A stretch of 64,000 bases of DNA from Vicinamibacteria bacterium. Its GTDB lineage: Bacteria > Acidobacteriota > Vicinamibacteria > Marinacidobacterales > Marinacidobacteraceae. Position numbers and translations under genes: made by a program. Below the pieces are notes generated by a model that saw only the letters and a program-made list of their open reading frames with translations, did no database searches and had not been told where the DNA came from. Where the stretch lies: positions 1,568,850-1,632,849 of the forward strand of contig OZ244068.1 of the NCBI GenBank assembly GCA_965215615.1, in the 5' to 3' direction. Positions 6,266 through 62,507 of the stretch are shown here, piece by piece; the first letter of the stretch is position 1, and every line of letters begins with the position of its first letter.

Positions 6266-8421
6266 CCGGCCGACGGATCGCGCTCCTGCTGCTGGTCAGC
6301 GCTCCGCTGGCCGCCGCCAGCCGGGATTTCTGGCGTTTCGAGAACGCGGAGGATTTCCTGAGCGGGGAGAGCCGCGGAGTGAGCATCGGCCCCGAAGGCG
6401 AGGTGCGGCTCGCGCCCCTCGTCCGGGAGATCCACGCGCCCGGCCAGCCCTTCATCTGGCGGATCGCGACGGCGGGTGAGAGCCAGGCGCTCGTGGCCGG
6501 AGGCGACGGGATGCTGCTGCGGGTCGAGGGAGATTCGGTCACCACCCTCGCCGAGAGTCGCGAAGGAGGTGTCCACGCGGTCGCTTCGGCACCGGATGGC
6601 GCGATCTTCTACGCCGCTTCTCCGGGCGGGACGATCCACCGGATCGCGGCCGACGGAGAGCGCTCGATCCTCCACGAACCGGAAGTCCGCTATGTCTGGG
6701 CACTCGAAGTCGAGCCGGGCGGGAGCGTACTGGCCGCCACCGGAAACCCCGCCTCGTTGATCCGGATCCAGCCTTCCGGACAGGCGACCACCCTCTTTTC
6801 GACACCCGAAGAACACATCACCGCGCTCCATCTGGCTCCCGACGGCACCATCTTTCTCGGAACCGCGCCCTCCGGCATCCTCTTCCGGATTTCGCAGGAT
6901 GGCGACGCGATGGCGCTTTTCGACAGCGACCAGACCGAGATCGGCCAACTGGTAACGAACGCTGCCGGAGAGGTCTTCGCAACCGCGCTCGCCTCTCCAG
7001 CCCGTCAGAACACCGACATGGCGCTTCCTCCGCCTCCTTCGCCGCCTCCGGCCGCGGGAGCAGCGATCGCCTCGGTTTCGACCACGAGCGCCTTTCGGGG
7101 CCTGCCGGCAACCCGCGAAACAGGCGCGACGAACGCCGGCAGGAACGCGCTCTACCGAGTGGAGCCGAACGGTGCCGCCGAAGCCATCTGGGAGTCCGCG
7201 GAAGAGCGGCCGCTCTCGCTCGCCCTGCTGCGCGACGAGCGCCTCCTGCTCGGAACCGGGAGGCGCGGACGCATCTACCGGATTTCCCGCGACGGGGACC
7301 GCACCCTCTGGCTCCGTGTCGAATCCGAACAGGTCACCGCCGCCGCCGTCATCGGGGAGCGGATCGTGGTCGGAACCTCGAATCCGGCACGGGTGCTTGC
7401 GCTCGGCCCGGGGAGCGGCGCGGAGGGGAGCTACCTCTCGCGGGTGCTCGATGCGGGAGGGGCGGCCCGCTTCGGGCGGATCGCCTGGGAGGCGCGGGCC
7501 CCGACCGGAACCACCATCTCGGTGGAAACCCGCACCGGGAATTCGGAAGAGCCGGACGATGCCTGGAGTGACTGGCGGGCCGCCGCAAACGGCGATTCGG
7601 TTGGAAGCCCCGACGCCCGCTTCCTGCAGTGGCGGGCCACCCTCCGCTCGGACGGAACCGCGACCCCGGAATTCGTCTCGCTCAGCGCCGCCTGGCTCGC
7701 CGCCAACCGCCGCCCGCGGGTGACTTCCATCACCATCCAGCCTCCGGGTGCCGGATTCGAACAACTCCAGGTCGCACAGCCGGTACGGGTACAGGGAATG
7801 TCCGATCCGCTCGAACCCACCGAAGCCGAAAGGCGGGGACAGGAGGGCTCCGGTTTCGGGGCGGGAGTCGGCCGGAGGATCTACCACCCGGGCCTCCAGA
7901 CGGTCACTTTCGAAGCGGAAGATCCCAACCGCGACCGGCTCCTCTACCGGGTGGACATCCGGCAGGTGGGCGAAGTTCCCTGGAAGCCGCTCGCCGGGGC
8001 GCTTCGGGAAACGGTCTTCGCCTGGAGCACCTCGAATCTCCCGGACGGGAGGTACGAACTTCGGATCACCGCCGACGACAGCCGGGACAACCCGATCCAG
8101 GACGCGCTCACCGGAGAGAAAGTGAGCCGGCCCTTTCCGGTGGACAACACGCCGCCGGTGATCTCCGGTCTCGCCATCGATCCCGACGGGACACTCCGTT
8201 TCGAAGCCACCGACAGCGTGAGTCCGATACGGCGCGCCACCGCATCCTCTGGCGGGGAGGCTCCGCAGGTGATTCGCCCGGACGACGGCATCAGCGATTC
8301 GACCGGGGAGCGCTACCGCTTGCAACTCGAAGGCCTCGAAGCCGGAGAGAGCGTTGTCGTACGGGTGGAAGACGATCTCGGCAACTGGGTGACCGCCGAG
8401 ACGGCGGCCCCTCGGCGTTAG
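6262..8421 (+). CDS. secreted beta-propeller-repeat protein (function unknown)
   Basis: An internal ATG at 6262 of ORF 5362..8421 overlaps the upstream stop (ATGA). Signal peptide MTGRRIALLLLVSAPLAAAS. Repeated ..DG.I..G.. blocks suggest propeller blades. The C-terminal region looks Ig-like. Confidence 0.6.
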   Translation: MTGRRIALLLLVSAPLAAASRDFWRFENAEDFLSGESRGVSIGPEGEVRLAPLVREIHAPGQPFIWRIATAGESQALVAGGDGMLLRVEGDSVTTLAESREGGVHAVASAPDGAIFYAASPGGTIHRIAADGERSILHEPEVRYVWALEVEPGGSVLAATGNPASLIRIQPSGQATTLFSTPEEHITALHLAPDGTIFLGTAPSGILFRISQDGDAMALFDSDQTEIGQLVTNAAGEVFATALASPARQNTDMALPPPPSPPPAAGAAIASVSTTSAFRGLPATRETGATNAGRNALYRVEPNGAAEAIWESAEERPLSLALLRDERLLLGTGRRGRIYRISRDGDRTLWLRVESEQVTAAAVIGERIVVGTSNPARVLALGPGSGAEGSYLSRVLDAGGAARFGRIAWEARAPTGTTISVETRTGNSEEPDDAWSDWRAAANGDSVGSPDARFLQWRATLRSDGTATPEFVSLSAAWLAANRRPRVTSITIQPPGAGFEQLQVAQPVRVQGMSDPLEPTEAERRGQEGSGFGAGVGRRIYHPGLQTVTFEAEDPNRDRLLYRVDIRQVGEVPWKPLAGALRETVFAWSTSNLPDGRYELRITADDSRDNPIQDALTGEKVSRPFPVDNTPPVISGLAIDPDGTLRFEATDSVSPIRRATASSGGEAPQVIRPDDGISDSTGERYRLQLEGLEAGESVVVRVEDDLGNWVTAETAAPRR

Positions 8422-43096: not shown

Positions 43097-43393
43097 GTGA
43101 TGATTCACGCTAGTATTACCGAAGCGCGGAACCGGTTCAGTCGCCTGCTCCGCTCGGTGCGGCGCGGCGAGACTGTCCTCATCACCGATCATGGAAGTCC
43201 GGTCGCACGGATCGAGCCCTGTAGCGGGCAATCCGATGATGACTGGATCGCGGACCGGGTCGCCCGCGGCATCGTGCGCCCACCGAAAGGTCGCCTTGAT
43301 GTGGAAGCTCTCCTCGCGAGACCAACGCCCCGCCTGCCCGATAGCGTGAGCGCGAGCGATGCGGTGACCGCGGACCGTGAGGAGTCCTGGTGA
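43097..43393 (+). CDS. Phd/YefM-type antitoxin
   Basis: 98 aa (GTG 43097 or ATG 43100). ITEARNRFSRLLRSVRRGETVLITDHGSPVARIEP. 4-nt overlap (GTGA) with the PIN gene. Confidence 0.75.
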   Translation: MMIHASITEARNRFSRLLRSVRRGETVLITDHGSPVARIEPCSGQSDDDWIADRVARGIVRPPKGRLDVEALLARPTPRLPDSVSASDAVTADREESW

Positions 43394-43809
43394 AGTACTG
43401 GGACTCTTCTGCCCTGGTCCCCCTCCTGACGAAAGAAAAAGGAACGGATATCCGGCGCTCCCTCCTGCGTCAGGATCCGGGTGTCGTCACATGGTGGGGC
43501 AGCTCGGTCGAGTGCGTTTCCGCGCTTCGCCGCCTCGAAAGGGAGCAAAAGCTGGACGCTCCTGGAGTTGCGGCGGCCTCGGAAGTCCTGATCCATCTGG
43601 AATCCGCCTGGATCGAGGTCGAGCCGTCTGCCCGCCTCCGGCTTCGAGCCCGGCGTCTCCTCGGGGTGCATCCCCTTCGTGCCGCCGATGCCCTGCAACT
43701 GGCCGCGGCGCTCGTCGCCGCCGGGGAAGATCCGGGGATCTTGCACTTCGTCTCGGGGGACATCCGTCTTTCCGAAGCCGCCGCGCGCGAAGGATTCACG
43801 GTCCTCTGA
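43390..43809 (+). CDS. vapC: PIN-domain toxin VapC
   Basis: 139 aa with YWDSSALVPLL (Asp1), SVECVSAL (Glu) and LRAADALQLAAAL (Asp3). The C-terminal region FVSGDIRL is partly atypical. Confidence 0.78.
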   Translation: MKYWDSSALVPLLTKEKGTDIRRSLLRQDPGVVTWWGSSVECVSALRRLEREQKLDAPGVAAASEVLIHLESAWIEVEPSARLRLRARRLLGVHPLRAADALQLAAALVAAGEDPGILHFVSGDIRLSEAAAREGFTVL

Positions 43810-44368: not shown

Positions 44369-44755
44369 TCACGCGGCTTCTATGTCTGTGCGGGCGAAAT
44401 CGTTTCCCTTGAACAGAAGCGGCTCCCGCATGACATCCGCGAGCGCATAAGCGAAGCAATCTCCGAAGTTCAGTCCTGCCGGGTGGTTCCCCTTCCCGAA
44501 CCGCCTGAAGGCGTACCTGGCGGCGACGAGTTGTTCCACGGTCACCGGAACCATTTCGAGCTCCACCCGATCCACGAGTCGCTCGAACTCCGCCCCGGCG
44601 GCCAGCCCACCCCGGCTCTCCGTAACCATCGTGACCTCGAGCGCGTTCACGACCGACATGCGCCGCTTTGGCGAGGCGGTAAGCGCGGTCTCATAGCGCG
44701 ACGAATCCGGCTCCTTGCCCAGGATCGCGAGAATCACCGAACTGTCCACGATCAC
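44369..44755 (-). CDS. vapC: PIN-domain toxin VapC (FitB-like)
   Basis: 128 aa with MIVDSSVILAIL (Asp1), ALEVTMV (Glu), NFGDCFAYALA (Asp3) and LFKGNDF (Asp4). Confidence 0.85.
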   Translation of the reverse strand: MIVDSSVILAILGKEPDSSRYETALTASPKRRMSVVNALEVTMVTESRGGLAAGAEFERLVDRVELEMVPVTVEQLVAARYAFRRFGKGNHPAGLNFGDCFAYALADVMREPLLFKGNDFARTDIEAA

Positions 44756-45024
44756 TTGGGAAGTCCCCGCTCGTCATAAAGCCATGCACCGTGATCGGTG
44801 GAGCCTGGTCCGGGATTCATGAGGCTCGCGCAACGCTCCGCGATGGAACGGATGTCCTCGAGCAGTCTCTCTCCCTCCTGCTCCCGGCACACGCGCTCCA
44901 GCCTTTCGCTCAAGGCTCGGGTGACGGCTTCCACCTTGGTTTCCCCGGTCCGTTCGGCGAGCTCGGCAGCGAGCCGGCACGTCTCCTCGCGTTTGATGTT
45001 CAAGCCCACGGCAACTTTTTCCAT
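44752..45024 (-). CDS. vapB: VapB-type antitoxin (Rv0623-like)
   Basis: 90 aa. LNIKREETCRLAAELAERTGETKVEAVTRALSERLERV is the pattern of the Rv0623/PSK-type antitoxins. 4-nt overlap with vapC. Confidence 0.7.
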   Translation of the reverse strand: MEKVAVGLNIKREETCRLAAELAERTGETKVEAVTRALSERLERVCREQEGERLLEDIRSIAERCASLMNPGPGSTDHGAWLYDERGLPK

Positions 45025-46138: not shown

Positions 46139-46283
46139 TCCGGGTCCGGCAGATATCGCTTCGGGACTTCAGCTCCGGGATGCAGCGAAACTCCTGAGTC
46201 GTCGCTCGACCATGGACTGCCCCTCGATGACACCGGGGAGGGTACCGGAACCGGCCCTGGCAGCATTACGGTATTATGGTCTT

Positions 46284-46577
46284 ATGCCAGCAAGGAAGAT
46301 GACCTTCAGTCTGGACGAGGAAACGGCGGAGCACATCACCGCGCTCGGGCGCGAGCTCGACAAGCCCAAGAGCGCCATCGTGCGCGAGGCGGTCGCGGTC
46401 TATCGGAAACACTCGGACCGGGTCAGCGAGGCGGAGCGGCGGGAGCGGGTTCGCATCTTTCGTGAGTTCCTCGAAAAGATCCCCCCGGCGGATTCGCACG
46501 AAGCCGCCGAAGCGGAATTGCGTGAAATTCGCCTCGCCCGCCGAAGCGGTGGACGGCGCACTCCGGTGGAGCCGTGA
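46284..46577 (+). CDS. vapB: CopG/RHH antitoxin (VapB-type)
   Basis: Internal ATG of ORF 46212..46577. KMTFSLDEETAEHITALGRELDKPKSAIVREAVAVY is an RHH fold. 4-nt overlap (GTGA) with the PIN gene. Confidence 0.7.
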   Translation: MPARKMTFSLDEETAEHITALGRELDKPKSAIVREAVAVYRKHSDRVSEAERRERVRIFREFLEKIPPADSHEAAEAELREIRLARRSGGRRTPVEP

Positions 46578-46990
46578 TCTTTCTCGACACCTCCGTTCTC
46601 GTGGATGCGCTGACCGGGACCCGGCCGCTCGCCCCTGTCCTGATCCGGGTCCTTTTTTCGGAGGATTCGATCCGCGTCCCTACCCTCGTCCTCTACGAGT
46701 GGTGGCGCGGCCCAAGAGCCCCGAGCGAACTCGAAGCCCAGCGACTCCTGTTCCCCGAGAACCGGGCGGTCCGGTTCGGGCCGCGGGAGGCGCGGGTCGC
46801 GGCGGGCCTCTACCAGACGCTCGAACGGGCCCGCGGCAGGGAGATGGACATCGCGATCGCCGCCTGCGCCATCGCGGCCGACGCCGAGCTCTGGACGCAG
46901 AACCGGAGCGACTTCGCGGACATCCCGAAACTCACGCTGTTCGATCCGGCTCAGCTCCCCGGGGCCACCCGCCAGAAGTGGGCCCGGTAG
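46574..46990 (+). CDS. vapC: PIN-domain toxin VapC
   Basis: 138 aa with IFLDTSVLVDAL (Asp1), LVLYEWW (Glu), EMDIAIAACAI (Asp3) and LWTQNRSDF (Asp4). Confidence 0.85.
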   Translation: MIFLDTSVLVDALTGTRPLAPVLIRVLFSEDSIRVPTLVLYEWWRGPRAPSELEAQRLLFPENRAVRFGPREARVAAGLYQTLERARGREMDIAIAACAIAADAELWTQNRSDFADIPKLTLFDPAQLPGATRQKWAR

Positions 46991-51785: not shown

Positions 51786-53751
<1,966 letters not shown>

Positions 53752-53807: not shown

Positions 53808-53917
53808 GCGCCCGGTAGGTTACGATCCCTTTGGTCAACGGGACGGCAGGAAGGCTTGGTCTGCCGAGGAAGCCCGTGACAAGTGCCGTCGTGCTGTCGC
53901 GCCAGGCTTCGCGAACC

Positions 53918-55390
53918 ATGCCCGGACTCCACAAGATGCCCTCGGATCGCGACCCTCTTCCCCTTCCCCACGGTTCTTCGCCTCTCGCAGTTCTTCCCCG
54001 CACAAACGCCTCGGCACCTCCTGTGGCGATGAAGCCGGGGACCCGGCCGCCGGGCCAGCCGACACTGTTTGGCCAAGCTGCCCTGCCGTCACAAGATCGA
54101 TCGGGTTCGGGGTTCCTGGATCCGGCATTTGCCACCAACAAGACACAGCCGGTGCACCGCTGGGTTCCGTGGATCGCCGGATTCTCCAAGGAGTTCGTAG
54201 CCGGCGCGTTCGACCGCTTCCTGCCGTCGAAGGGACGAGTGCTCGACCCCTTCGCCGGCGTAGGCACGACCCTGCTCGAAGCGGTGCTGGCAGGCCACGA
54301 TGCGGTTGGGTTCGAGATCAACCCCTACGCTGCCTTCGCCTGCCGAACCAAGCTCCACGCCTTCACCGCTGACCCGGAAAACCTGCAGGATCACGCAGAT
54401 CGCTTCCTGAAATTCCACGCCCGGACCCGGAGCCGGGAACCCAGGTCCAAGCCACCTCCCGGGTTCCGAACGCGCGAGGCTTTCTACCACCCCAAGGTTC
54501 TCCGCAAGGTGCTTTTCTCGTTGGACTTCATCTCGGGAATCGAAGACCCACAAACGCGCGATCTTTTCGAGCTCGCTTTCGCGGCCACCATGGTCTCCTA
54601 CTCGAACTACTCCTATGAGCCGAGCCTCGGCCGGAAAGCCGCAGTCGGGAGGGTCGCAGCCACCGAGTTCCCCGTAGAAGAGTCCATTGCGGCGCGACTG
54701 CTCGACATGTCCGAAGACATCCGCTGGTTCCGGGAGCAACAAGGGAAACGACGGCCGCGCCGGCGCGTCGTACTCGACTCCTTCTTCACGGCTTACCGTG
54801 GGGTGTCCAAGGGCTCGGTGGATCTGATCGTCACCTCTCCGCCCTACCTGAACAACTACCACTACAACCGCAACACGAGACCCCAGCTCTACTGGCTCGG
54901 ACTGGTGGAGTCCACGCGAGATATGAAAGAAATCGAGCAGCGCAACTTCGGGAAGTTCTGGCAGACCGTCAGAGAACAACCCGACGTAGAGCTCGACCCC
55001 GAGATCGCCGACCCAGAGGTCCGGGACACCCTCGCGGAACTCCGCGCCAAGACTCCAGAAAAGAAGATCTACGGCGGGCGAGGCTGGGCCAACTACGCCG
55101 CCACCTATTTCAACGACTGCCTGCGTTTCGCGCGCGGGGCGAACTGGTGCCTCAGGCCCGGTGCCTCGGCGCTCGTCGTCATCGGGAACAGCATCCTCCA
55201 AGGGATTCCGATCCCCACCGATCGCTTCCTGGCGCAGATCGCCGAAGTAGCCGGCCTGGAGACCGTCGCCATCCACATCCCGCGCGATACACGCGTCGGC
55301 AACAGCATCATCAACTCGGACATTCGCGTCGGGTCGGCGGGCCGGAAGAATCGACTCTACGAAGCGGTCGTGGAGCTGAGGAATCCTTGA
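53918..55390 (+). CDS. SAM-dependent DNA methyltransferase (N4-C or N6-A; motif I before an SPPY motif IV), no adjacent endonuclease
   Basis: ORF 53831..55390. VHRWVPWIAGFSKEFV, VLDPFAGVGTTLLEAVLAGHDAVGFEINPYA (FxGxG/motif I) and VDLIVTSPPYLNNYHY (motif IV). The start is uncertain (ATG 53918 or 54029). Codon usage is visibly less GC3-biased than in core genes. Confidence 0.75.
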   Translation: MPGLHKMPSDRDPLPLPHGSSPLAVLPRTNASAPPVAMKPGTRPPGQPTLFGQAALPSQDRSGSGFLDPAFATNKTQPVHRWVPWIAGFSKEFVAGAFDRFLPSKGRVLDPFAGVGTTLLEAVLAGHDAVGFEINPYAAFACRTKLHAFTADPENLQDHADRFLKFHARTRSREPRSKPPPGFRTREAFYHPKVLRKVLFSLDFISGIEDPQTRDLFELAFAATMVSYSNYSYEPSLGRKAAVGRVAATEFPVEESIAARLLDMSEDIRWFREQQGKRRPRRRVVLDSFFTAYRGVSKGSVDLIVTSPPYLNNYHYNRNTRPQLYWLGLVESTRDMKEIEQRNFGKFWQTVREQPDVELDPEIADPEVRDTLAELRAKTPEKKIYGGRGWANYAATYFNDCLRFARGANWCLRPGASALVVIGNSILQGIPIPTDRFLAQIAEVAGLETVAIHIPRDTRVGNSIINSDIRVGSAGRKNRLYEAVVELRNP

Positions 55391-55560: not shown

Positions 55561-55735
55561 ATTTCGTCTCCCGAACTGGTTCTCGATCCGACGAGACCGA
55601 GCGTCGTCGCCCGGCTGATTACCCTGGTTCTCCTCGCGTGGAGGGCGAAGCGCTCGCCACCGCTTTTGATGGATCGAAAGCACGCACTTGGAGCCGAAAA
55701 GAAGCCAAGTCCTTGTAAGAAAGCGGTTTCTTTAT
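55561..55735 (+). pseudogene. decayed groEL-like fragment
   Basis: 23-nt exact match GTGGAGGGCGAAGCGCTCGCCAC (55638-55660 equals groEL 52864-52886, encoding VEGEALAT). Upstream, ISSPELVLDPTRPSVVARLITLVLLA has the same length as Gro[29 protein letters not shown]. Downstream, LLMDRKHALGAEKKPSP..KKA is comparable to [26 protein letters not shown]. Three reading frames are needed. Confidence 0.35.
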
Positions 55736-55765
55736 TTGATCGAAAAGCGATATAACATCGCCGTC

Positions 55766-57253
55766 ATGGATCAGGAAAGCATCAGGCAGACCGTCCGGGA
55801 GTTGTGCCGGCTTCCGGCGGAGAACGAGTGGGTGGAGTTCAAGGTCAACCAGGCCGAGCCGCGGATGATCGGCCAGCGCATCTCGGCGCTCGCCAACAGC
55901 GCCGCCCTCCTCCATCAACCGGCCGGCTTTGTCGTCTGGGGTGTGGAGGACGGCTCCCACCAGATCGTGGGAACCCGGTTCCGGCCCTCGAAACAGAAGA
56001 AAGGAAGCGAACCGCTGGTCCCCTGGCTGTTCCAGCAACTGACACCACCGGTCCCCTTCCAGGTTCACGAAGTGGAGATGGACGGGAAGCGAATCGTCGT
56101 TCTCGAGGTCAGCCCGGCGCGCAACCAGCCCGTGGCCTTCGCCGGGGAGAGATTCCTGCGTATCGACAGCCAGACCCGAAGACTCGACAGATTCCCGGAG
56201 CATGAGCGGGCGCTCTGGCGCGTGTTCGACACGACACCTTTCGAGGCGCGCACCGCGGCCGAGGGCCTTGCCGGGGAAAAGGTCGCGGCATTGCTCGATC
56301 ACGCGGCGTACTTCGAGCGGCTTCGACTCCCGGTGCCGGGCAACCGGCGTTCCGCATTCGATGCTCTCGCCCGCGACGAATTGCTGCGTCCGGGGGCCTC
56401 CGGAGAGTGGGATATCACCAATCTGGGTGCGCTGCTTCTTGCGCGGCGACTTGCGGATTTCTCCGGGCTGGCGCGGAGAGCGGTGCGACTCATCCGCTAC
56501 CGGGGCACCGGGCGCACCGGCGAGGCTCGGGAATGGGAGTACGAAGATGGCTACGCGCGGTGCCTCGACCGCCTGAATCAGCAAATCGACGGCCAGTTAC
56601 CTTCACGGGAGATCCTCCGAGGCAGCCGGCGAGAGATCGAATGGGCGTTTCCTCCGATCGCGGTTCGGGAGCTGGTGGCCAACGCACTCATTCACCAGGA
56701 TCTCGCCATGCGCGGTGCGGGACCGATGGTCGAGATCTTCGATGGCCGGATCGAGATCACGAATCCCGGCGAGCCCCTGATCGAAACCGAGCGCCTGGTG
56801 GACGCTCCCCCGCAGTCCCGCAACGACCGTCTCGCTTCCCTGATGCGCCGGTTCGGTTTCAGCGAAGAGCGAGGCATGGGGATCGACCGGGTGGTCGAAG
56901 AAATCGAGGCGTACGAACTTCCTCCCCCCCGCTTCCACAAGCCGCAGGGGTTCACCCGCGTGACTCTCCATGCGAGGAAGAAACTCGCCGAAATGAGCCC
57001 GGACGACCGGAACTGGGCCTGTTACCTCCACGCCTGCCTCAGATACCTGAACGGCAACAGCCTCACCAACGCGTCGCTACGGCGACGGTTCGGCATCCCG
57101 GACCGAAACCGGGCGATGGCCTCCCGTCTCATCCGGAATGCGATGGAGAGCGGGGCAATCACTCCTGAAGACACCGCCGCCTCCCGCAAAACGATGCGCT
57201 ACATCCCGTGGTGGGCGGCGCGGGAGAACGGCAACGGGGGGCCGCCGGCCTGA
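55766..57253 (+). CDS. AlbA_2 (Schlafen-like 'divergent AAA') plus HATPase_c_4-type protein with a C-terminal winged helix (often annotated RecG-like/transcriptional regulator)
   Basis: ATG at 55766 in ORF 55688..57253. ENEWVEFKVN.. N-terminal DNA-binding module, RELVANALIHQDL..GPMVEIFDGRIEITNPG (GHKL-like), and the tail ..SRKTMRYIPWWA. Confidence 0.72.
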   Translation: MDQESIRQTVRELCRLPAENEWVEFKVNQAEPRMIGQRISALANSAALLHQPAGFVVWGVEDGSHQIVGTRFRPSKQKKGSEPLVPWLFQQLTPPVPFQVHEVEMDGKRIVVLEVSPARNQPVAFAGERFLRIDSQTRRLDRFPEHERALWRVFDTTPFEARTAAEGLAGEKVAALLDHAAYFERLRLPVPGNRRSAFDALARDELLRPGASGEWDITNLGALLLARRLADFSGLARRAVRLIRYRGTGRTGEAREWEYEDGYARCLDRLNQQIDGQLPSREILRGSRREIEWAFPPIAVRELVANALIHQDLAMRGAGPMVEIFDGRIEITNPGEPLIETERLVDAPPQSRNDRLASLMRRFGFSEERGMGIDRVVEEIEAYELPPPRFHKPQGFTRVTLHARKKLAEMSPDDRNWACYLHACLRYLNGNSLTNASLRRRFGIPDRNRAMASRLIRNAMESGAITPEDTAASRKTMRYIPWWAARENGNGGPPA

Positions 57254-57264
57254 CGGCACTGCTG

Positions 57265-57609
57265 TCAGATCAACCGCAACCCGGCGGAGTCGAATCGCCG
57301 AAAGTCGGCTTGATTCGCGGTCGCAAGGCGCGCCCCATCCTGGATGGCCGCCGCAGCAATCAGGCAATCCGGCAAGGAGCCACGACGACGGCCTGATTCG
57401 TGGAACAGGGCCGCCGCAACCCTGGCTTGCTCCACGTCGAGATCACGAAAGTCGTCCACGATCCATAACGCCAGATCCCGCTCCGCCAGCTCGTGTGAGA
57501 CGACAGATAAAACTGGTCCACCGGATTGGGCGGCCCGCCCGTTCTTTCGACAGCCTGGGCTTGTGTTCCTTCCGGCGAGTGTGGGAAGAACGATGGACAC
57601 CGGAACCAA
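57265..57609 (-). CDS. orphan PIN-domain protein (VapC-like) lacking the first catalytic Asp
   Basis: 114 aa with a TTG start. SIVLPTLAG sits where PINs have (I/L)(L/V)LDT. The rest is intact: VVSHELAE, LPDCLIAAAAI, ATANQADF. Low-GC3 codons (tta, ttt, gat, att). No antitoxin ORF upstream. Confidence 0.6.
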   Translation of the reverse strand: MVPVSIVLPTLAGRNTSPGCRKNGRAAQSGGPVLSVVSHELAERDLALWIVDDFRDLDVEQARVAAALFHESGRRRGSLPDCLIAAAAIQDGARLATANQADFRRFDSAGLRLI

Positions 57610-57766: not shown

Positions 57767-58198
57767 TCAGAACGAGAAGAACGCCCCCATCTGGAAGAGG
57801 GTCAGCGCCTCGCTGAACTGGACGATGAGCCGCGCTCCGTAGCGGCGGCCGAAGGTCAGACTCGCGCCGGCATGGGGCGAAACATTCCCGCCGTCGTACT
57901 CGATGCCCGCCCGGAGCGCCGGACGGATGAGCGCGTCGGCGCGGCCGAGACGGATCGCGCCGCCCGCCCGGTTGGCGGTTCCCGCGACTTCGGCGCAGCG
58001 CCAGTTCTCGACCATGCCGTAGAGCGAGAACGGCCCGGCGACCTGTCCGTTGATCGCGACGAACCGACCCGGACAGGCGTTCTCATCTCCGCCGACGAGA
58101 CCGGCTTCGAAGAGGAACGGACCCGGCGCGTCCTCGGCGACGGCGGGAGCGGCAAGCGCGAGCAGCGCAGCGAAAAGGAGTCCGATGGGTCGGGGCAT
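57767..58198 (-). CDS. small secreted, possibly outer-membrane beta-strand protein
   Basis: 143 aa, signal peptide MPRPIGLLFAALLALAAPAVA, alternating hydrophobic pattern, C-terminal ..GAFFSF (aromatic terminus as in OMPs). No family recognised. Confidence 0.5.
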   Translation of the reverse strand: MPRPIGLLFAALLALAAPAVAEDAPGPFLFEAGLVGGDENACPGRFVAINGQVAGPFSLYGMVENWRCAEVAGTANRAGGAIRLGRADALIRPALRAGIEYDGGNVSPHAGASLTFGRRYGARLIVQFSEALTLFQMGAFFSF

Positions 58199-58219: not shown

Positions 58220-58511
58220 TTGACCATGGCTCGGCTCGATTTGACCATGGCAAACCCGGAATGACCATGGTTCGCCGGATGCCGCGCACTCTTCGGCTCA
58301 GCAACCGGCCCCGGTCCCGAAAACCGGCTGGTTTTGCGCCCTCGCGTGGCCGAATCACTGGTTTTCGGTGGCGAACCAGTGGTTCTGGCGCAAATCACCG
58401 GAAAGATTGCTTTGCGGTCGAATTCGCGATTTGACCATGGTTTTCGGGCCCAATTGGCGGTTTGACCATGGTTTTCGGGCAGTTTGACCATGGTTCCCGG
58501 TTTGACCATGG
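58220..58511. repeat. iteron-like array: seven direct copies of (T)TGACCATGG in two clusters around an inverted repeat
   Basis: Copies start at 58220, 58241, 58261 (ATGACCATGG), 58431, 58462, 58484 and 58502. There are two identical 20-mers TTTGACCATGGTTTTCGGGC (58430-58449, 58461-58480). The central inverted repeat is CACTGGTT-N10-AACCAGTG (58356-58381). GGTTTTCGG-like words recur. Confidence 0.85.
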
Positions 58512-58513
58512 CT

Positions 58514-59197
58514 TCAGGAACGGGCGGTGCGATACGCCTGCTGCGGATGACTCGTCTGTTCGGGATGGCGCAGTTCGAGCTGCCCCGCCTTGAGCATCGG
58601 CCGGAGGTGGCGACGCTGCAGGTTGCTCGTGTCCATGCGGAACCAGTCGGCGAGCTCGCCCACCGTGGTCCATTCCCGCATCGCGCAGATTTCGAGGATC
58701 AGCGCGCGGAGCGGCTTCTTGCGGCGGCGCTTCCCGAGGGCGCGGATGCGCTCCCGGATCGCCTGCGGGAGATCGGCCTCCGGCGGGAGCTTCCCGGGTA
58801 GGGGTTTCGGGAGCGATGCCGATTCCGGCTTGCCGCCGGCGAGCGAGGCGAGGCTCGTGCCGAGGTCGGCCACCTCCCCGGCGAAGCCTTCCGCTTCCGA
58901 ACCGGCGCGGGTGACCCCTTCGCCGATCCGACGAAGGCGCGGCCCGCCGCGATCCGGGCCCAGCCGGTCGCCGATCCGGATCGCGGCGCGGCCCACCCGG
59001 ACCGCACCCCGCGAGACGTTCTCCGCGGTTCGGCCGGCCGCCGCGAGACCGCGGGCGATCGGGCCGGCGTTCCGGTCGAAGAAGCGCCAGCCGCGCCGGA
59101 TTCCCCGGCCGAGATAGCGGAGCCAGGCCCCCACGCCACGCAGCCACGGCCGGTCAAAAAAGCGCCGGATCGCCGGGAGTCCGGGAGGCTCGGTCAC
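58514..59197 (-). CDS. protein with an Arg-rich repetitive N-terminal half and a C-terminal winged-helix of the Fic/AlbA_2-associated type
   Basis: 227 aa, GTG start, high GC3. The N-terminus has RRFFDRPW.. and WRFFDRN repeats. The C-terminus is ILEICAMREWTTVGELADWFRMDTSNLQRRHLRPMLKAGQLELRHPEQTSHPQQAYRTA (..P..P.sP.Q.Y+.t ending). Confidence 0.6.
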   Translation of the reverse strand: MTEPPGLPAIRRFFDRPWLRGVGAWLRYLGRGIRRGWRFFDRNAGPIARGLAAAGRTAENVSRGAVRVGRAAIRIGDRLGPDRGGPRLRRIGEGVTRAGSEAEGFAGEVADLGTSLASLAGGKPESASLPKPLPGKLPPEADLPQAIRERIRALGKRRRKKPLRALILEICAMREWTTVGELADWFRMDTSNLQRRHLRPMLKAGQLELRHPEQTSHPQQAYRTARS

Positions 59198-59280
59198 GGT
59201 CAGAAAACTATCAGCCCGAGACGGTGCACGCCCGTCCGTCGCGGGTTACACTCGCCCGCATGGCGAGCAACGGAGAAGTG

Positions 59281-59541
59281 ATGAACCAGCGCACCTATCT
59301 GGTGCTCATCCACGACGGTGCGGAGAAGGCCGCAGATCGCATCCGGGCGAACTACCCGAATGCCTTCCCGATGGAGCACCCCGGCACCTTCCTGATCAAG
59401 ACCGGGCAGCTCTCGGACGAGATCGCCAATACCCTCAAAATCAACGGGGACGACCGCGATCTCATGGGCGTGGTGTTCGGCCTGAAACCGGCGTATGCGG
59501 GGTTCTCCTCGCGCCGGCTCTGGGAGTGGCTCGGTGACTGA
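59281..59541 (+). CDS. 86-aa soluble protein, function unknown (first gene of a two-gene operon)
   Basis: ATG at 59281 with GGAG 6 nt upstream (the ORF track begins at 59224). High GC3. MNQRTYLVLIHDGAEKAADRIRANYPNAFPMEHPGTFLIKTGQLSDEIANTLKINGDDRDLMGVVFGLKPAYAGFSSRRLWEWLGD. Confidence 0.55.
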   Translation: MNQRTYLVLIHDGAEKAADRIRANYPNAFPMEHPGTFLIKTGQLSDEIANTLKINGDDRDLMGVVFGLKPAYAGFSSRRLWEWLGD

Positions 59542-59752
59542 TTACTCCAAAGCTCCGGGTGTTGGGCCCGTGCCGAAGGGAGCGTCGCTCGAAGTCAAGG
59601 TCGCCCGGTTGGAGACACGGGCGGAGTTCTTCGCTACCCGCGAGTGGGTCCTGACCCACTTGGCGAAACGCTGGCAGACCTGGTTGCCGATCCTGTTGTC
59701 GCTCGCGATGGTTCTGCTGTTCTTCTGGCGGGAAATCCGCGCACTCTCCTGA
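59534..59752 (+). CDS. 72-aa tail-anchored membrane protein (XhlA/holin-like architecture), function unknown
   Basis: The GTG at 59534 overlaps the upstream stop (GTGACTGA). The helical N-part (LEVKVARLETRAEFFATREWVLTHL) is followed by one TM helix (WLPILLSLAMVLLFFW). GC3 is high in this frame and low in the overlapping antisense tail of the RM gene. Confidence 0.5.
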   Translation: MTDYSKAPGVGPVPKGASLEVKVARLETRAEFFATREWVLTHLAKRWQTWLPILLSLAMVLLFFWREIRALS

Positions 59753-62507
59753 CCCGCTTCTTCTTGCGGGCGGCGGCGAGCGGGGCGCGCATCCGCTCGT
59801 AGCGGGCGAAGAGGTGTTCCACCCGCTCGCGCTCGGACGAAAACGCCTGCTTCCGGTAGAGCCGGTCCACCGCCCGGTCGAGCGCCGAGTGAGCGCGGCG
59901 CAAATCCCGTGGCATCAGGTCCGGGTCGTAGAGATCGGCGAGCGTCGAACCCGGATGGGCGGCGCGGGCATCGAGCACCGCCTGGGCGAGAGGATCGAGC
60001 GACGCGAGGTCCGGCCCCGGAGTCGGGAAGGTGTTGTACACGAGGCCGATCGAATAGCGGTAGCGGCTCTCCAGGCGGCCGCCGATGTGCCGGAGCCAGG
60101 CCATGTGCATCGCCGAGGTGAGCAGCGCGAACTCGCCGAGGCTCGCGTCTTCGAGGATGCGAACCAGGTTGCTCGGGACCACCGGCGGTTCGAGCCAGCC
60201 GATCGGGGCGTACTCGCGGCGTTCGGAACTCACCTCCGGGAGCACGAGGAACGGCGAGGTCGGTAGAGTGTTGACCTGCCAGTGTCTCGGAGTTTCGGCG
60301 AGCTTCAAGGTCGAGGCTCGACGACTGGCTTCGCGGTAGCGCCGCACCGAGGCCAGCCGCTCGCGCACCCGTGGCATCGCCCGGATTTCCGACGGCTCGG
60401 CCTCGTGGAGCGCGAGGATGAATCGCCGGCCGCCCTGGAGTAACTCGCGGGCACCGAGGTACGGCCGGAGGTACGGCCCGGCGGCGGGCTCCTCCGCGAT
60501 CAGCTCTGCCCCTTCGATCTCACCGAGGATGAGATGGCCGCCGTCGATCGGCTGGGAACCCGTTACCAGCCGGCGCATCCCGTTGATCGGCCGCGCCTCC
60601 TCGCGCACCACGAGATGCGGATCGCCGAGCCCCGAGGCATCGAAGAGATACGGCGAGAGCGCCTGGTGCCGGCTCTCGTGCGGGTCGCCTTTCGGGTCGT
60701 CATACGAGAAGAGCCGCTTCGTCGCCGGCGCGTCCTCCCGCTGCGCGAGCCCGAGGATCACCACGTGCACATGGGCCATCCCGCGGGCATCCGAACCCCA
60801 CGCGAAGGTCCGGTGGGCGAAGGCGATTTCGAGCCCGAACCTGCCGAAGAGGAGCGGCCAGAGCTGCGCCACCTGTTCGCCCTGCGTGATGGAGTTCGTC
60901 GCGACGAAGCCGATCCGCGCTCCCCCGCCCCGGATGTATTCGCCCGCCCGGAGGAACCACGCAGTCACGAAATCGAGCGTCCCGCCGGACCCGCCGAGCG
61001 CCGCGATCCGCCGCACCTGCCCGCGCTGGAGCGCCGACTGGAACTTCGCGCCCCCGAACGGCGGGTTCCCGAAGACGAACGAACACTCCTCCGGCGGCAG
61101 GAGTTCCGCCCAGTCGGTTTCGAGCGCGTCTTCGTTCCGGATCTTCGGCGAGCGGCGGAGCGGGATGCGGGCGAACGCCTGCCCGAAGCGGCGGCCGAGC
61201 TCCACGTTCATGATGTGGTCCATCATCCAGAGCGCGGTCTCGGCGATCCGCGCCGCGAACTCGCCGATCTCGATCCCGTGGAACCGGTCCACGTCGAGCC
61301 GCGAGAGCGCTCCCACGTCGAGCTGGCGGGGGACTTCACCGTAGATCTCCACCAGCACCTCGATTTCGAGCCGCCGCAGCTCCCGGTAGGCGATGATGAG
61401 GAAGTTCCCGCAGCCGCAGGCCGGGTCGAAGAAGGTCAACGCGCCGAGCTTCTCGTGGAAGGCGAGGAGCCGCGCCTCGCGCCCGCGCCTGAGCTCCCGG
61501 AGATTCGCGAACTCGGCGCGGAGGTCGTCGAGAAAGAGCGGCTCGATCACCTTCAGGATGTTCTGCTCGGTGGTGTAATGCGCCCCCGAGGCGCGGCGTT
61601 CTTTCGGGTCCATCACCGACTGGAAAAGCGAGCCGAAGATCGCCGGCGAAATCCGCGACCAGTCGAAGCGGCAGGCCCGCAGCAGTTGCCGGCGCATCGC
61701 CGAAGTGAACGCGGGAATCCGGACCTGCCCCTCGAAGAGATCGCCGTTCACGTGGGGAAAGCGGGCGAGGTCTTCGTCGAGATTCGCGAAGCGCTGACCC
61801 TCGGGCGTGTCCAGCACCTCGAAGAGCTGGGCGAGCCACGGCCCGAGGTCGCTCCCGTCCTCGCGGGTTCTCGATTCGAGAAACTCGAGGAAGATGTCGC
61901 GCGGCTCGAAGATCCCGGTATCGTCGGCGAAGAGACAGAAGACGATCCGGACGAGGAAGCGCTCCAGATCGTGGCCCCGGTAGCCCGCCTCCGCGAGGCT
62001 GTCGTGGAGCTTCCCGACGAGCTCGGCGGCTTCGATGTTCGCGGGATCCTGGTCACGGAACGTCCGCCGCCGCACCCCGAGGATGAAGCCGAACCGGTCC
62101 ACGTGGTCGGGAAGTTCGGCGAGCGCGAACGAGACCTCTTCGCGGGTATCGAGATCGTGAAGCTCGAAGGTCTGGAAGTCGCTGACCAGGATGTACTGCG
62201 GCCGCTCGGCCTCCGGGAGCGCGTCGAAGTACTCCCCCGCCTGTCCGTAAGCTGCCCCGAGATCGCGCCCGGCGCTCTTTTGCTCGACGAGCAGCACTCC
62301 CGGCCAGAAGAGGTCGATGAACCCCGAGGAGTTGTCGAGCCGCCGGACGCGCTCCTCGTAACGGGCCACCGAAGCCCGCCGCACCCCGAAGATCTCGAAG
62401 AACTCGTTGTAGAAGGTCTGGGTCTCGCCCTTTTCGTACCCCGCTTCCGCCCACCGCCGGGCGAACTCGGCCGCCCGGGGGCGGATCTCGTTCCAGGAGA
62501 GGCGCAT
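59634..62507 (-). CDS. MmeI-family type IIL restriction-modification enzyme (fused nuclease, N6-adenine methyltransferase and TRD)
   Basis: 957 aa. N-terminal PD-ExK-like FIDLFWPGVLLVEQKS. SGAHYTTEQNILKVIEPLF. DPACGCGNFLI (motif I). VFGNPPFGG (NPPF motif IV). A long C-terminal TRD follows. The last about 45 codons have low GC3 and overlap the convergent small gene. Confidence 0.88.
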   Translation of the reverse strand: MRLSWNEIRPRAAEFARRWAEAGYEKGETQTFYNEFFEIFGVRRASVARYEERVRRLDNSSGFIDLFWPGVLLVEQKSAGRDLGAAYGQAGEYFDALPEAERPQYILVSDFQTFELHDLDTREEVSFALAELPDHVDRFGFILGVRRRTFRDQDPANIEAAELVGKLHDSLAEAGYRGHDLERFLVRIVFCLFADDTGIFEPRDIFLEFLESRTREDGSDLGPWLAQLFEVLDTPEGQRFANLDEDLARFPHVNGDLFEGQVRIPAFTSAMRRQLLRACRFDWSRISPAIFGSLFQSVMDPKERRASGAHYTTEQNILKVIEPLFLDDLRAEFANLRELRRGREARLLAFHEKLGALTFFDPACGCGNFLIIAYRELRRLEIEVLVEIYGEVPRQLDVGALSRLDVDRFHGIEIGEFAARIAETALWMMDHIMNVELGRRFGQAFARIPLRRSPKIRNEDALETDWAELLPPEECSFVFGNPPFGGAKFQSALQRGQVRRIAALGGSGGTLDFVTAWFLRAGEYIRGGGARIGFVATNSITQGEQVAQLWPLLFGRFGLEIAFAHRTFAWGSDARGMAHVHVVILGLAQREDAPATKRLFSYDDPKGDPHESRHQALSPYLFDASGLGDPHLVVREEARPINGMRRLVTGSQPIDGGHLILGEIEGAELIAEEPAAGPYLRPYLGARELLQGGRRFILALHEAEPSEIRAMPRVRERLASVRRYREASRRASTLKLAETPRHWQVNTLPTSPFLVLPEVSSERREYAPIGWLEPPVVPSNLVRILEDASLGEFALLTSAMHMAWLRHIGGRLESRYRYSIGLVYNTFPTPGPDLASLDPLAQAVLDARAAHPGSTLADLYDPDLMPRDLRRAHSALDRAVDRLYRKQAFSSERERVEHLFARYERMRAPLAAARKKKRVRRVRGFPARRTAEPSRATTGSATRSASVSPSGSGPTRG

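Follow-up and report, generated by a model that had tools for sequence, protein, structure and literature searches.

A conserved two-cluster direct-repeat array beside a coiled-coil/winged-helix protein gene in Vicinamibacteria: a putative multi-site operator on the chromosome

The window analysed here, 64,000 nucleotides of contig OZ244068.1 of a Vicinamibacteria bacterium (GC content about 67%), contains at positions 58220-58514 a dense array of co-oriented repeats, located between the gene of a 227-amino acid (aa) winged helix-turn-helix (wHTH) protein and the gene of a small signal-peptide-like protein. What could such an array be doing on a chromosome? An earlier note, made from the letters of the window, had compared it with plasmid or phage iterons, partition (par) sites and multi-site operators, and had also considered a methylation-sensitive switch. 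Comparison with related loci suggested that the array is very probably a protein-binding DNA element, and that the adjacent wHTH protein is rather likely to be its binder. The reading that we favour, and to which we give an even chance, is that 58220-58514 would serve the wHTH protein as its cognate multi-site operator or looping platform and thereby gate the neighbouring gene.

On the plus strand, seven exact copies of TGACCATGG start at 58221, 58242 and 58262 and at 58432, 58463, 58485 and 58503 (3 + 4). No other exact copy was found on either strand of the window. A first-order Markov model of the window predicts 0.12 copies per strand in 64 kb and 0.0006 copies in 291 bp. This confirmed the seven same-orientation copies, the two clusters with spacings of 21/20 and 31/22/18 bp and the density far above chance that had been described in the earlier note. 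The two identical 20-mers (TTTGACCATGGTTTTCGGGC, 58430-58449 and 58461-58480) and the inverted repeat of the spacer (GAATCACTGGTT-N10-AACCAGTGGTTC, 58352-58385) were also located. The distance to the small secreted-protein gene, given as 22 bp, was measured as 21-22 nt between the edge of cluster A and the start codon of this co-directional gene (ATG 58198). At the other end the last 9-mer stops at 58511, leaving 2 nt and not 3 to the stop codon of the wHTH gene. The 9-10-mer itself proved too short: the functional unit is 13 bp long and asymmetric, TTGACCATGGCTC-like on the plus strand and GAGCCATGGTCAA on the strand of the flanking genes. When related arrays were compared, TGGTCAA was the invariant core of the unit, and the CCATGG palindrome was not the conserved part. 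In cluster B the units read TTGACCATGGYYY on the plus strand and RRRCCATGGTCAA on the gene (minus) strand, and the last 13-bp unit shares the final base of the wHTH stop codon. The spacer between the clusters has a GC content of 59%, A/T content phased at about 10 bp, the word GAATTC beside cluster B and the words TTCCGG, ATTCGG and TTTCGG. The array region had no coding potential.

Relatives of the array were collected by scanning 185,579 genomes, one per species, with a pattern of three spaced copies of the 9-mer. The scan returned at least 117 loci, mostly unrelated perfect tandem repeats (periods 12-33 bp) from many phyla; among the matches listed, the bipartite architecture was found only in Vicinamibacteria, 'Ca. 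Marinacidobacterium' and Acidobacteriota loci. Further loci were obtained by protein-guided look-ups and a metagenome scan. The bipartite element is present in at least 15 loci from at least eight Vicinamibacteria genomes or metagenomes. It is about 400 bp long and consists, in gene-strand order, of cluster B (4-7 units), a homologous spacer and cluster A (2-4 units). Start-to-start steps in 14 arrays were 20 bp (21 times), 21 bp (21 times), 22 bp (18 times), 18-19 bp (12 times) and 31-32 bp (9 times). The 31-32-bp step, seen in nine related arrays, was always the last one in cluster B, next to the spacer. The step between the clusters, last B unit to first A unit, was exactly 221 bp in seven arrays, 196-252 bp in others and 170 bp in the window, where about 50 bp of the spacer has been deleted. 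All these steps are close to whole helical turns (2, 3 and about 21). The general class proposed in the earlier note, in-phase co-oriented direct repeats of the iteron, centromere or multi-operator kind, was supported.

Conservation was concentrated in the units. Unit columns were on average 80% identical between pairs of loci, compared with 47% for the short linkers, 53% for the spacer and 42% for the flanks, a pattern that would be expected of protein-contact sites. A/T periodicity of 10-11 bp placed all 15 spacers in the top 2% of 3,388 control windows (the spacer of the window was in the top 1.3%). Phasing and unit conservation point to duplex DNA that would be read on one face and bent between the clusters. 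The spacers also contain a second, mostly co-oriented family of words (ATTCCGG and TTTCCGG, i.e. WTTCCGG, ATTCGG and GAATTC), which is 8-28-fold enriched and could represent sites of a second factor or simply a curvature code. A small GAATTC-centred palindrome after cluster B showed no covariation.

The contigs carrying the element are chromosomes of 2-4.5 Mb with at least 1-4 known copies each, array-only copies included. Contig OZ219816.1 carries L118, which has the wHTH gene, and L061, which does not; L108/L048, L102 and L039, the last a truncated array, are on CAXXLQ010000004.1. Since L069, L093 and L039 occupy orthologous positions in three genomes, with differing small genes alongside, the element is a stable chromosomal feature and not a highly mobile repeat. 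The earlier note had set against its own proposal the outcome of a dispersed element resembling repetitive extragenic palindromic (REP) sequences and unlinked to the gene. Part of this was found, as the element does occur at loci without the gene; the known copy number is not that of a high-copy REP-like family. REP sequences, bacterial interspersed mosaic elements and miniature inverted-repeat transposable elements were rejected on the same copy number, on the direct-repeat units and on the absence of terminal inverted repeats from the alignment. Two other groups of matches were discarded: L066, an unrelated palindromic operator (TTGACCATGGTCAA) without the bipartite element, and five IMG/VR viral contigs (L120, L122, L124, L125 and L126) of low GC content. 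The viral matches were confined to phage iterons and tandem repeats that share CCATGGTCA with the array by chance; the 21-23-bp iterons that include it, for example CCATGGTCATTTTGACTATACCC, look like those of phage origins. A literature search for the motif returned only cloning primers with NcoI sites, and no paper was found under the name 'Marinacidobacterium'.

In the window and in L049, L108+L048, L118, L130, L131, L132, L253 and L255 no more than tens of bp separate the wHTH stop codon from the beginning of the array, and in L224 homologues of the wHTH and MmeI genes share a 7.8-kb contig with an array. Altogether there are at least 10 loci in which the element directly follows, or in a single instance precedes, a wHTH-family gene. 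The link between array and winged-helix gene that the earlier note had drawn from a single locus thus held in relatives, and the repeat was found to co-vary with the protein lineage. All eight units at the locus of P0013 are CCGTGGTCAA, with the non-palindromic CCGTGG. At the loci of P0022 and P0026 the units follow GAGC[AA/AG/CA/TC]TGGTCAA (the variants CAATGG, CAGTGG and CTCTGG of related arrays). P0003 is followed by GAGCTGGTRTCATTACC repeats 22 bp apart, in an array truncated by an ISL3 element. The distant homologue P0028 (40% identical; L127) is accompanied by 3 + 4 units of CCTGGGTGAYAAGC with 20-22-bp steps and a 212-bp gap with phased A/T; this array lies between a MunI-like/MT-A70 restriction-modification (R-M) pair and the start of the wHTH gene. 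Thus the unit sequence shifts with the protein lineage and the 3 + 4 architecture is kept. Retention of the architecture with replacement of the unit together with the protein would be the behaviour of cognate protein-site pairs, and we regard it as the strongest argument for binding.

The wHTH gene is also linked to MmeI-type genes, in at least seven loci including the window, L049, L119, L131, L132 and L224. In L049, L119, L131 and L132 the MmeI stop codon is 2 nt before, or overlaps, the start of the next gene, a junction that suggests translational coupling. In the window the two genes are 437 bp apart, and a 105-aa open reading frame (ORF) lies between them on the other strand.

Among 5.8 billion clusters 38 homologues of the 227-aa protein were found, none of them named or carrying a Pfam domain. 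Searches of the protein against Pfam, NCBIfam, PADLOC and PDB sequences did not assign it to a family. The alignment of homologues revealed a conserved N-terminal PPGxxAIRRFF motif and, in agreement with an AlphaFold2 model (mean predicted local distance difference test score 81), a long antiparallel helical hairpin spanning residues 17-119. A Pro-rich disordered linker, short in the window protein, connects it to a single C-terminal winged helix (residues ~139-224) of the Fic-like_C/MarR-like class. Foldseek matched the winged helix to the Fic-family protein 4rgl, to MarR-family structures (about 80 residues, probability 0.9-1.0, E > 0.01) and to DIP2311 (3lmm), and the hairpin to generic antiparallel coiled coils. 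The Pfam Fic-like_C match is weak in the window protein and clearer in its relatives. The model and these matches bear out the predicted winged-helix fold, as the earlier note had supposed. A profile search of 1.84 billion representatives returned 43 clusters with the full architecture and about 1,700 that share the winged helix only, often as the tail of AlbA_2/HATPase_c_4 proteins (Pfam Fic-like_C). Family members range from 227 to 390 aa. A hairpin, a flexible linker and a wHTH domain form an architecture that, judged from the model, would be suited to oligomerising on direct repeats. Two distant members, P0037 and P0036 (34-47% identity; L256 and L129), have Trypsin_2 protease genes and not an array after them; at 2700-2779 of L256, just upstream of the family gene, there are three ATCGCCCCAGGCTC repeats 32 bp apart.

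These observations can be combined into the following proposal. Each asymmetric 13-bp unit (GAGCCATGGTCAA-like) would bind one winged-helix domain. The units are two helical turns apart, with one step of three, and bound proteins would therefore all lie on one side of the DNA. Neighbouring bound proteins would be connected through their helical-hairpin domains, and the A/T-phased, intrinsically bendable spacer would allow the cluster of four units to meet that of three in a looped or wrapped structure. Such a complex would gate the next co-directional gene by occluding its promoter and/or by blocking read-through from the R-M/wHTH operon. Gating of the next gene appears the most likely outcome because the complex would sit between this operon and a gene starting 22 nt beyond the last unit. 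Extra arrays elsewhere on the chromosome may be further operators or sinks for the protein.

The genes that would be gated are probably restriction, toxin or nuclease genes. In intact wHTH loci a co-directional gene follows the element, and in nine loci the distance between the end of cluster A, or of its duplicate A', and the start of such a gene is 22-98 bp. In the window this is the gene of the 143-aa protein, whose place is taken in relatives by one of two larger proteins. An unannotated protein of 542-561 aa, with the N-terminus V/M-x-F/S-R/S-NLTHDD, is encoded after the array in L118 (9368-11053), L049, L108+L048, L131 (7044-8672) and L132 (7042-8712). It belongs to no Pfam, NCBIfam or PADLOC family, a weak RNase_H_2 match (E = 0.036) being the only one detected, and is a possible nuclease-type effector. 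In L130 the downstream gene encodes a giant protein with PDDEXK_1 and UvrD domains (Pfam), and a comparably large (1819+ aa), unscanned protein is found in L253. In four loci (L049, L108+L048, L131 at 6472-6729 and L132 at 6512-6769) an orphan ParD-family gene (TIGR02606), on the opposite strand and with no adjacent ParE gene, is bracketed by cluster A and the extra cluster A' of 3-4 units, which lies in the divergent promoter region.

A small DNA-binding protein encoded in or next to an R-M operon and controlling a dangerous gene recalls the controller (C) proteins of R-M systems. The C proteins are dimers of the Xre-type HTH class, about 80-100 aa in size, whose targets are one or two inverted-repeat C-boxes located upstream of the C gene itself. 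In contrast, the proteins described here have 227-390 aa and a coiled coil plus wHTH domain, and the 7-12 direct repeats extend over 300-450 bp, usually downstream of the gene. The array also differs from MarR/PadR-type operators: the winged-helix domain is shared, whereas in place of one or two (pseudo)palindromic sites overlapping a promoter there are 7-12 co-oriented asymmetric units.

Several observations weigh against a gating operator of the adjacent protein. The evidence for binding is all comparative, and the co-variation of motif and protein is confounded by physical linkage and shared descent. Autoregulatory operators do not usually lie behind their gene, as the array does with respect to the wHTH gene. 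Scans for consensus sigma-70 promoters and for terminators in the arrays of the window and two relatives gave nothing persuasive. Beyond cluster A, the next gene is convergent at 5 of 11 loci, which leaves nothing obvious to gate. The enriched second word family (WTTCCGG, GAATTC) hints at a second factor. Six perfect arrays (L025, L055, L061, L069, L093 and L102) have no wHTH homologue within 8 kb, and in L079, L092, L159, L237 and L241 only the last 22-81 codons of the wHTH gene are left before an intact array; an array can thus survive where no binder is encoded in cis. The array-only loci are neighboured by VapBC, HicAB, PIN, HigA-like HTH, HepT/MNT and AlbA_2 genes. As toxin-antitoxin-type genes abound all over these genomes, we take the association as no more than suggestive.

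The persistence of arrays where there is no downstream gene to regulate, and the presence of several arrays with one common unit on the same chromosome, would also fit a role in pairing or anchoring chromosomal loci, similar to a centromere or a handcuffing site that works without a nucleoside triphosphatase (NTPase). The long flexible linker and the coiled coil of the protein would permit bridging. The closest parallel is stbS of plasmid R388, where 9-bp direct repeats come in two sets of five, further operators lie elsewhere and there is no NTPase (bioRxiv 10.1101/2022.04.29.490116); the single protein of that system, StbA, acts as a repressor and also organises a higher-order complex (bioRxiv 10.1101/2022.04.29.490116; PMC3098194). 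Our system shares with it the division of the direct repeats into two sets, the additional smaller arrays of the same replicon and the single HTH protein with no NTPase. However, the stbS units have 9 bp and 2-bp spacers (11-bp period) and occupy the stbA promoter, ahead of that gene and beside oriT of a conjugative plasmid, whereas here 13-bp units with a 20-22-bp period form sets about 220 bp apart, on a chromosome and in most cases downstream of the gene. The two kinds of protein are not related: the HTH of StbA is N-terminal, whereas the proteins studied here have a coiled-coil hairpin followed by a C-terminal Fic-like_C wHTH, and neither PDB sequence search nor Foldseek matched StbA to the 227-aa protein in sequence or fold.

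A second parallel to the two-set arrangement is tubC of pBtoxis, where seven 12-bp repeats in two sets are bound by the winged-helix protein TubR in a filament-like complex (bioRxiv 10.1101/2022.04.29.490116). Both systems have seven direct repeats, divided into two sets, and a winged-helix protein; tubC differs in being plasmid-borne, with contiguous 12-bp units, and in needing the GTPase TubZ, which is absent from every locus studied here. In parC of plasmid R1, as in other type II/Ib centromeres, a central region lies between two clusters of direct repeats, and a small adaptor, here the ribbon-helix-helix (RHH) protein ParR, wraps the DNA into a ring or solenoid. parC contains the parMR promoter and is upstream of the operon, and the actin-like ATPase ParM is required. 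The array has the two direct-repeat clusters on either side of a central region in common with parC; in place of an upstream, promoter-containing site, an RHH protein and ParM, it is accompanied by a wHTH protein, and no Par NTPase gene was seen. Partition centromeres are bound by a small DNA-binding adaptor encoded alongside; for the array, adjacency to the wHTH gene and co-variation of motif and protein were observed, which makes the wHTH protein a candidate for such an adaptor. Against a pairing role stand the large chromosomes, which need no extra partition system, the lack of a partner NTPase gene and the lack of plasmid relatives among the matches. We consider the role unlikely as an alternative to the gating operator, with which it in fact overlaps, StbA itself being also a repressor.

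The array-only loci and the decayed wHTH genes beside arrays raise the question whether the binder is encoded elsewhere, the wHTH gene being merely a frequent neighbour. RHH proteins classically bind tandem direct repeats (ParR, omega, ParG), and the ParD-family gene between clusters A and A' in four loci could encode such a protein. This gene, however, is absent from the window, L118, L130, L253, L255 and L127, all of which have full arrays, and the wHTH gene is the sole consistently adjacent gene, with whose lineage the repeat changes. A different binder is therefore a distinctly unlikely explanation.

The same loci could be read as a hotspot of recombination or insertion, at which the repeats are recombination substrates and provide a landing pad for toxin-antitoxin and defence cassettes. 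The genes alongside do vary: HigA-like, PIN or nothing at L093, L069 and L039, and HicAB in L055, absent from L061. Breakpoints recur inside the 3' end of the wHTH gene, and the ParD gene bracketed by clusters A and A' could be one such cassette. L079 and L092 (MPMW01000037.1) are two arrays about 95% alike, in direct orientation 6.3 kb apart and each after a wHTH-gene remnant; between them lie an AlbA_2/HATPase_c_4 gene and an unscanned 1202-aa gene, which together look like a 5-kb cassette between duplicated arrays. On the other hand, no recombinase or integrase gene was seen at any locus examined, the density of toxin-antitoxin genes in these genomes makes such adjacency partly expected, and homologous recombination needs neither strict helical phasing nor a fixed 221-bp step. 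We regard a hotspot as improbable.

Could the repeats instead work at the RNA level, for instance as protein sponge or structured leader? Transcription of the array is probable, given that no terminator was found behind the wHTH gene on its strand, and the RNA of the window folds better than shuffled sequences (z = -3.9). This stability, however, is owed to the self-complementary CCATGG, and related arrays do not conserve that word. RNAalifold gave -14 kcal/mol for the gene strand of 12 spacers with a covariation term of -0.55, no relevant Rfam match was found, and conservation follows the ~10.5-bp helical phasing, a property of duplex DNA. A function in RNA is thus very unlikely.

It was important to consider whether a plasmid or phage, integrated or excisable, has its iteron origin or a classical par centromere here, a reading raised in the earlier note. 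Unit size and the helical phasing of the direct repeats, mostly 20-22 bp in the 14 arrays where iterons have a period of about 17-22 bp, are iteron-like, and so is the place next to a winged-helix gene. P1 incA and F incC, for instance, are in-phase direct repeats that lie after the rep gene and act by titration and handcuffing, and the array likewise immediately follows the gene of a winged-helix protein. The likeness ends there. Those plasmids have Rep initiators with two winged-helix domains and an origin with an unwinding element and DnaA boxes, none of which is present here: the protein has one wHTH plus a coiled coil and is no Rep_3-type initiator, the 59% GC spacer is not an AT-rich unwinding element, no DnaA box was found at the array (the nearest DnaA-box-like site is about 9 kb away), and the GC skew does not switch there. 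No Rep, ParA, ParM, TubZ, recombinase or integrase gene was detected among the called genes and Pfam matches of the window flanks and the related loci examined, and neither the protein nor the array had plasmid or phage homologues among the matches. The arrays are on megabase chromosomal contigs, at loci orthologous between genomes. Two ARAGORN calls, 54371-54463 (minus strand) and 59767-59836 (plus strand), were considered in connection with tRNA-linked integration and rejected as probably false, as they sit inside ORFs; they correspond to a tRNA with a 4-base anticodon in the methyltransferase frame and a tRNA-Thr in the MmeI frame, probable artefacts of high GC content. Replication or partition of a plasmid or phage is extremely unlikely, and the GC-skew check recommended in the earlier note gave no sign of an extrachromosomal form.

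A methylation-sensitive switch, suggested by the seven CCATGG palindromes in 291 bp and the nearby SPPY-motif N4/N6-type methyltransferase (Table 1), is hardly credible. Phase switches of the pap/agn43 type keep their methylation target in each binding site; here the palindrome is replaced in every unit of related arrays (by CCGTGG in all eight units, or by CAATGG, CAGTGG or CTCTGG, and by CCTGGGTGAYAAGC in the distant pair), the invariant core is TGGTCAA, the methyltransferase is not a conserved neighbour of the array, and CCATGG is not depleted elsewhere in the window (18 sites, 7 of them in the array and 11 outside, as against 14.5 expected for the whole window).

A CRISPR (clustered regularly interspaced short palindromic repeats) array, in which repeats of 23-47 bp alternate with unique spacers of similar length, was also rejected, the units being 13 bp and the linkers 5-9 bp (18 bp at the 31-bp step), with no cas gene among the flanking ORFs (Pfam, PADLOC). 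With an unrelated protein, a two-turn period, sets about 21 turns apart and a chromosomal context linked to R-M and toxin genes, the element belongs to none of the known systems with which it was compared.

The coordinates of the array and its surroundings are compiled in Table 1. On the minus strand the order is MmeI enzyme, 227-aa protein, array, 143-aa protein and PIN gene. Given these neighbours, the array lies in an islet of about 9 kb of defence- and toxin-type genes beside a core gene, groEL; the interval between groEL and the array is occupied by the methyltransferase, AlbA_2/HATPase_c_4 and PIN genes. The window holds at least four PIN genes. Besides the one at 57265-57609, PIN-like ORFs, judged from N-terminal sequence alone, are at 43390-43809, 44369-44755 and 46574-46990; the second is preceded by an ORF of 90 aa (44752-45024) and the third by one of 121 aa (46212-46577). 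The density of toxin-antitoxin-type genes in this genome seems unusually high.

Table 1. The repeat array at 58220-58514 and genes in its surroundings (window coordinates)
Feature	Position	Strand	Remarks
Cluster B	58431..58514	-	four 13-bp units: 58431-58443, 58462-58474, 58484-58496, 58502-58514
Spacer	58274..58430	-	homologous to ~210-bp spacers of related arrays, ~50 bp shorter (alignments)
Cluster A	58220..58273	-	three 13-bp units: 58220-58232, 58241-58253, 58261-58273
wHTH gene, 227-aa protein	58514..59197	-	stop codon 58514-58516; presumed array-binding protein
105-aa ORF	59224-59541	+	coding-like GC content at third codon positions (0.84), no family match; between MmeI and wHTH genes
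MmeI-type (type IIG/IIL) R-M enzyme	59634..62507	-	upstream of wHTH gene on same strand
Signal-peptide-like 143-aa protein	57767..58198	-	co-directional, downstream of array; no family match
PIN-domain gene	57265-57609	-	ORF may be N-terminally truncated; no antitoxin found
AlbA_2/HATPase_c_4 protein	55688-57253	+	Pfam
SPPY (N4/N6) DNA methyltransferase	53831-55390	+	
groEL	52111-53751	+	

Beyond the gating of single genes, a wider role can be imagined, which we think rather unlikely: the arrays might belong to an undescribed chromosomal system in which looped or paired nucleoprotein 'knots', formed on the principle of plasmid centromeres and iterons but without NTPase or Rep at restriction, toxin-antitoxin and nuclease islets, insulate or silence genes as a block or mark sites of cassette exchange, and in which co-evolution of protein and site has diversified the specificity (CCATGGTCAA, CCGTGGTCAA, CCTGGGTGAYAAGC and others). 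What appears to be new is the occurrence of the theme of a direct-repeat array with a cognate adaptor, known elsewhere, in a lineage without genetics, with a function that is still putative. The tempting interpretations as an integrated plasmid origin or as a methylation switch at NcoI sites could both be corrected. If the pairing of protein and site is true, it would define a new cognate family, with about 40 clusters at 50% identity that have the full-length architecture, none of them annotated. It would mean that multi-site assembly in the style of centromeres and iterons takes place on chromosomes, beside R-M, toxin-antitoxin and nuclease genes of uncultured marine and soil Acidobacteria. 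It would also give a function to Fic-like_C, a widespread winged helix with which many Schlafen/AlbA_2 proteins end as well, and would provide a natural set of orthogonal protein-operator pairs and a handle on the silencing or insulation of defence and toxin genes.

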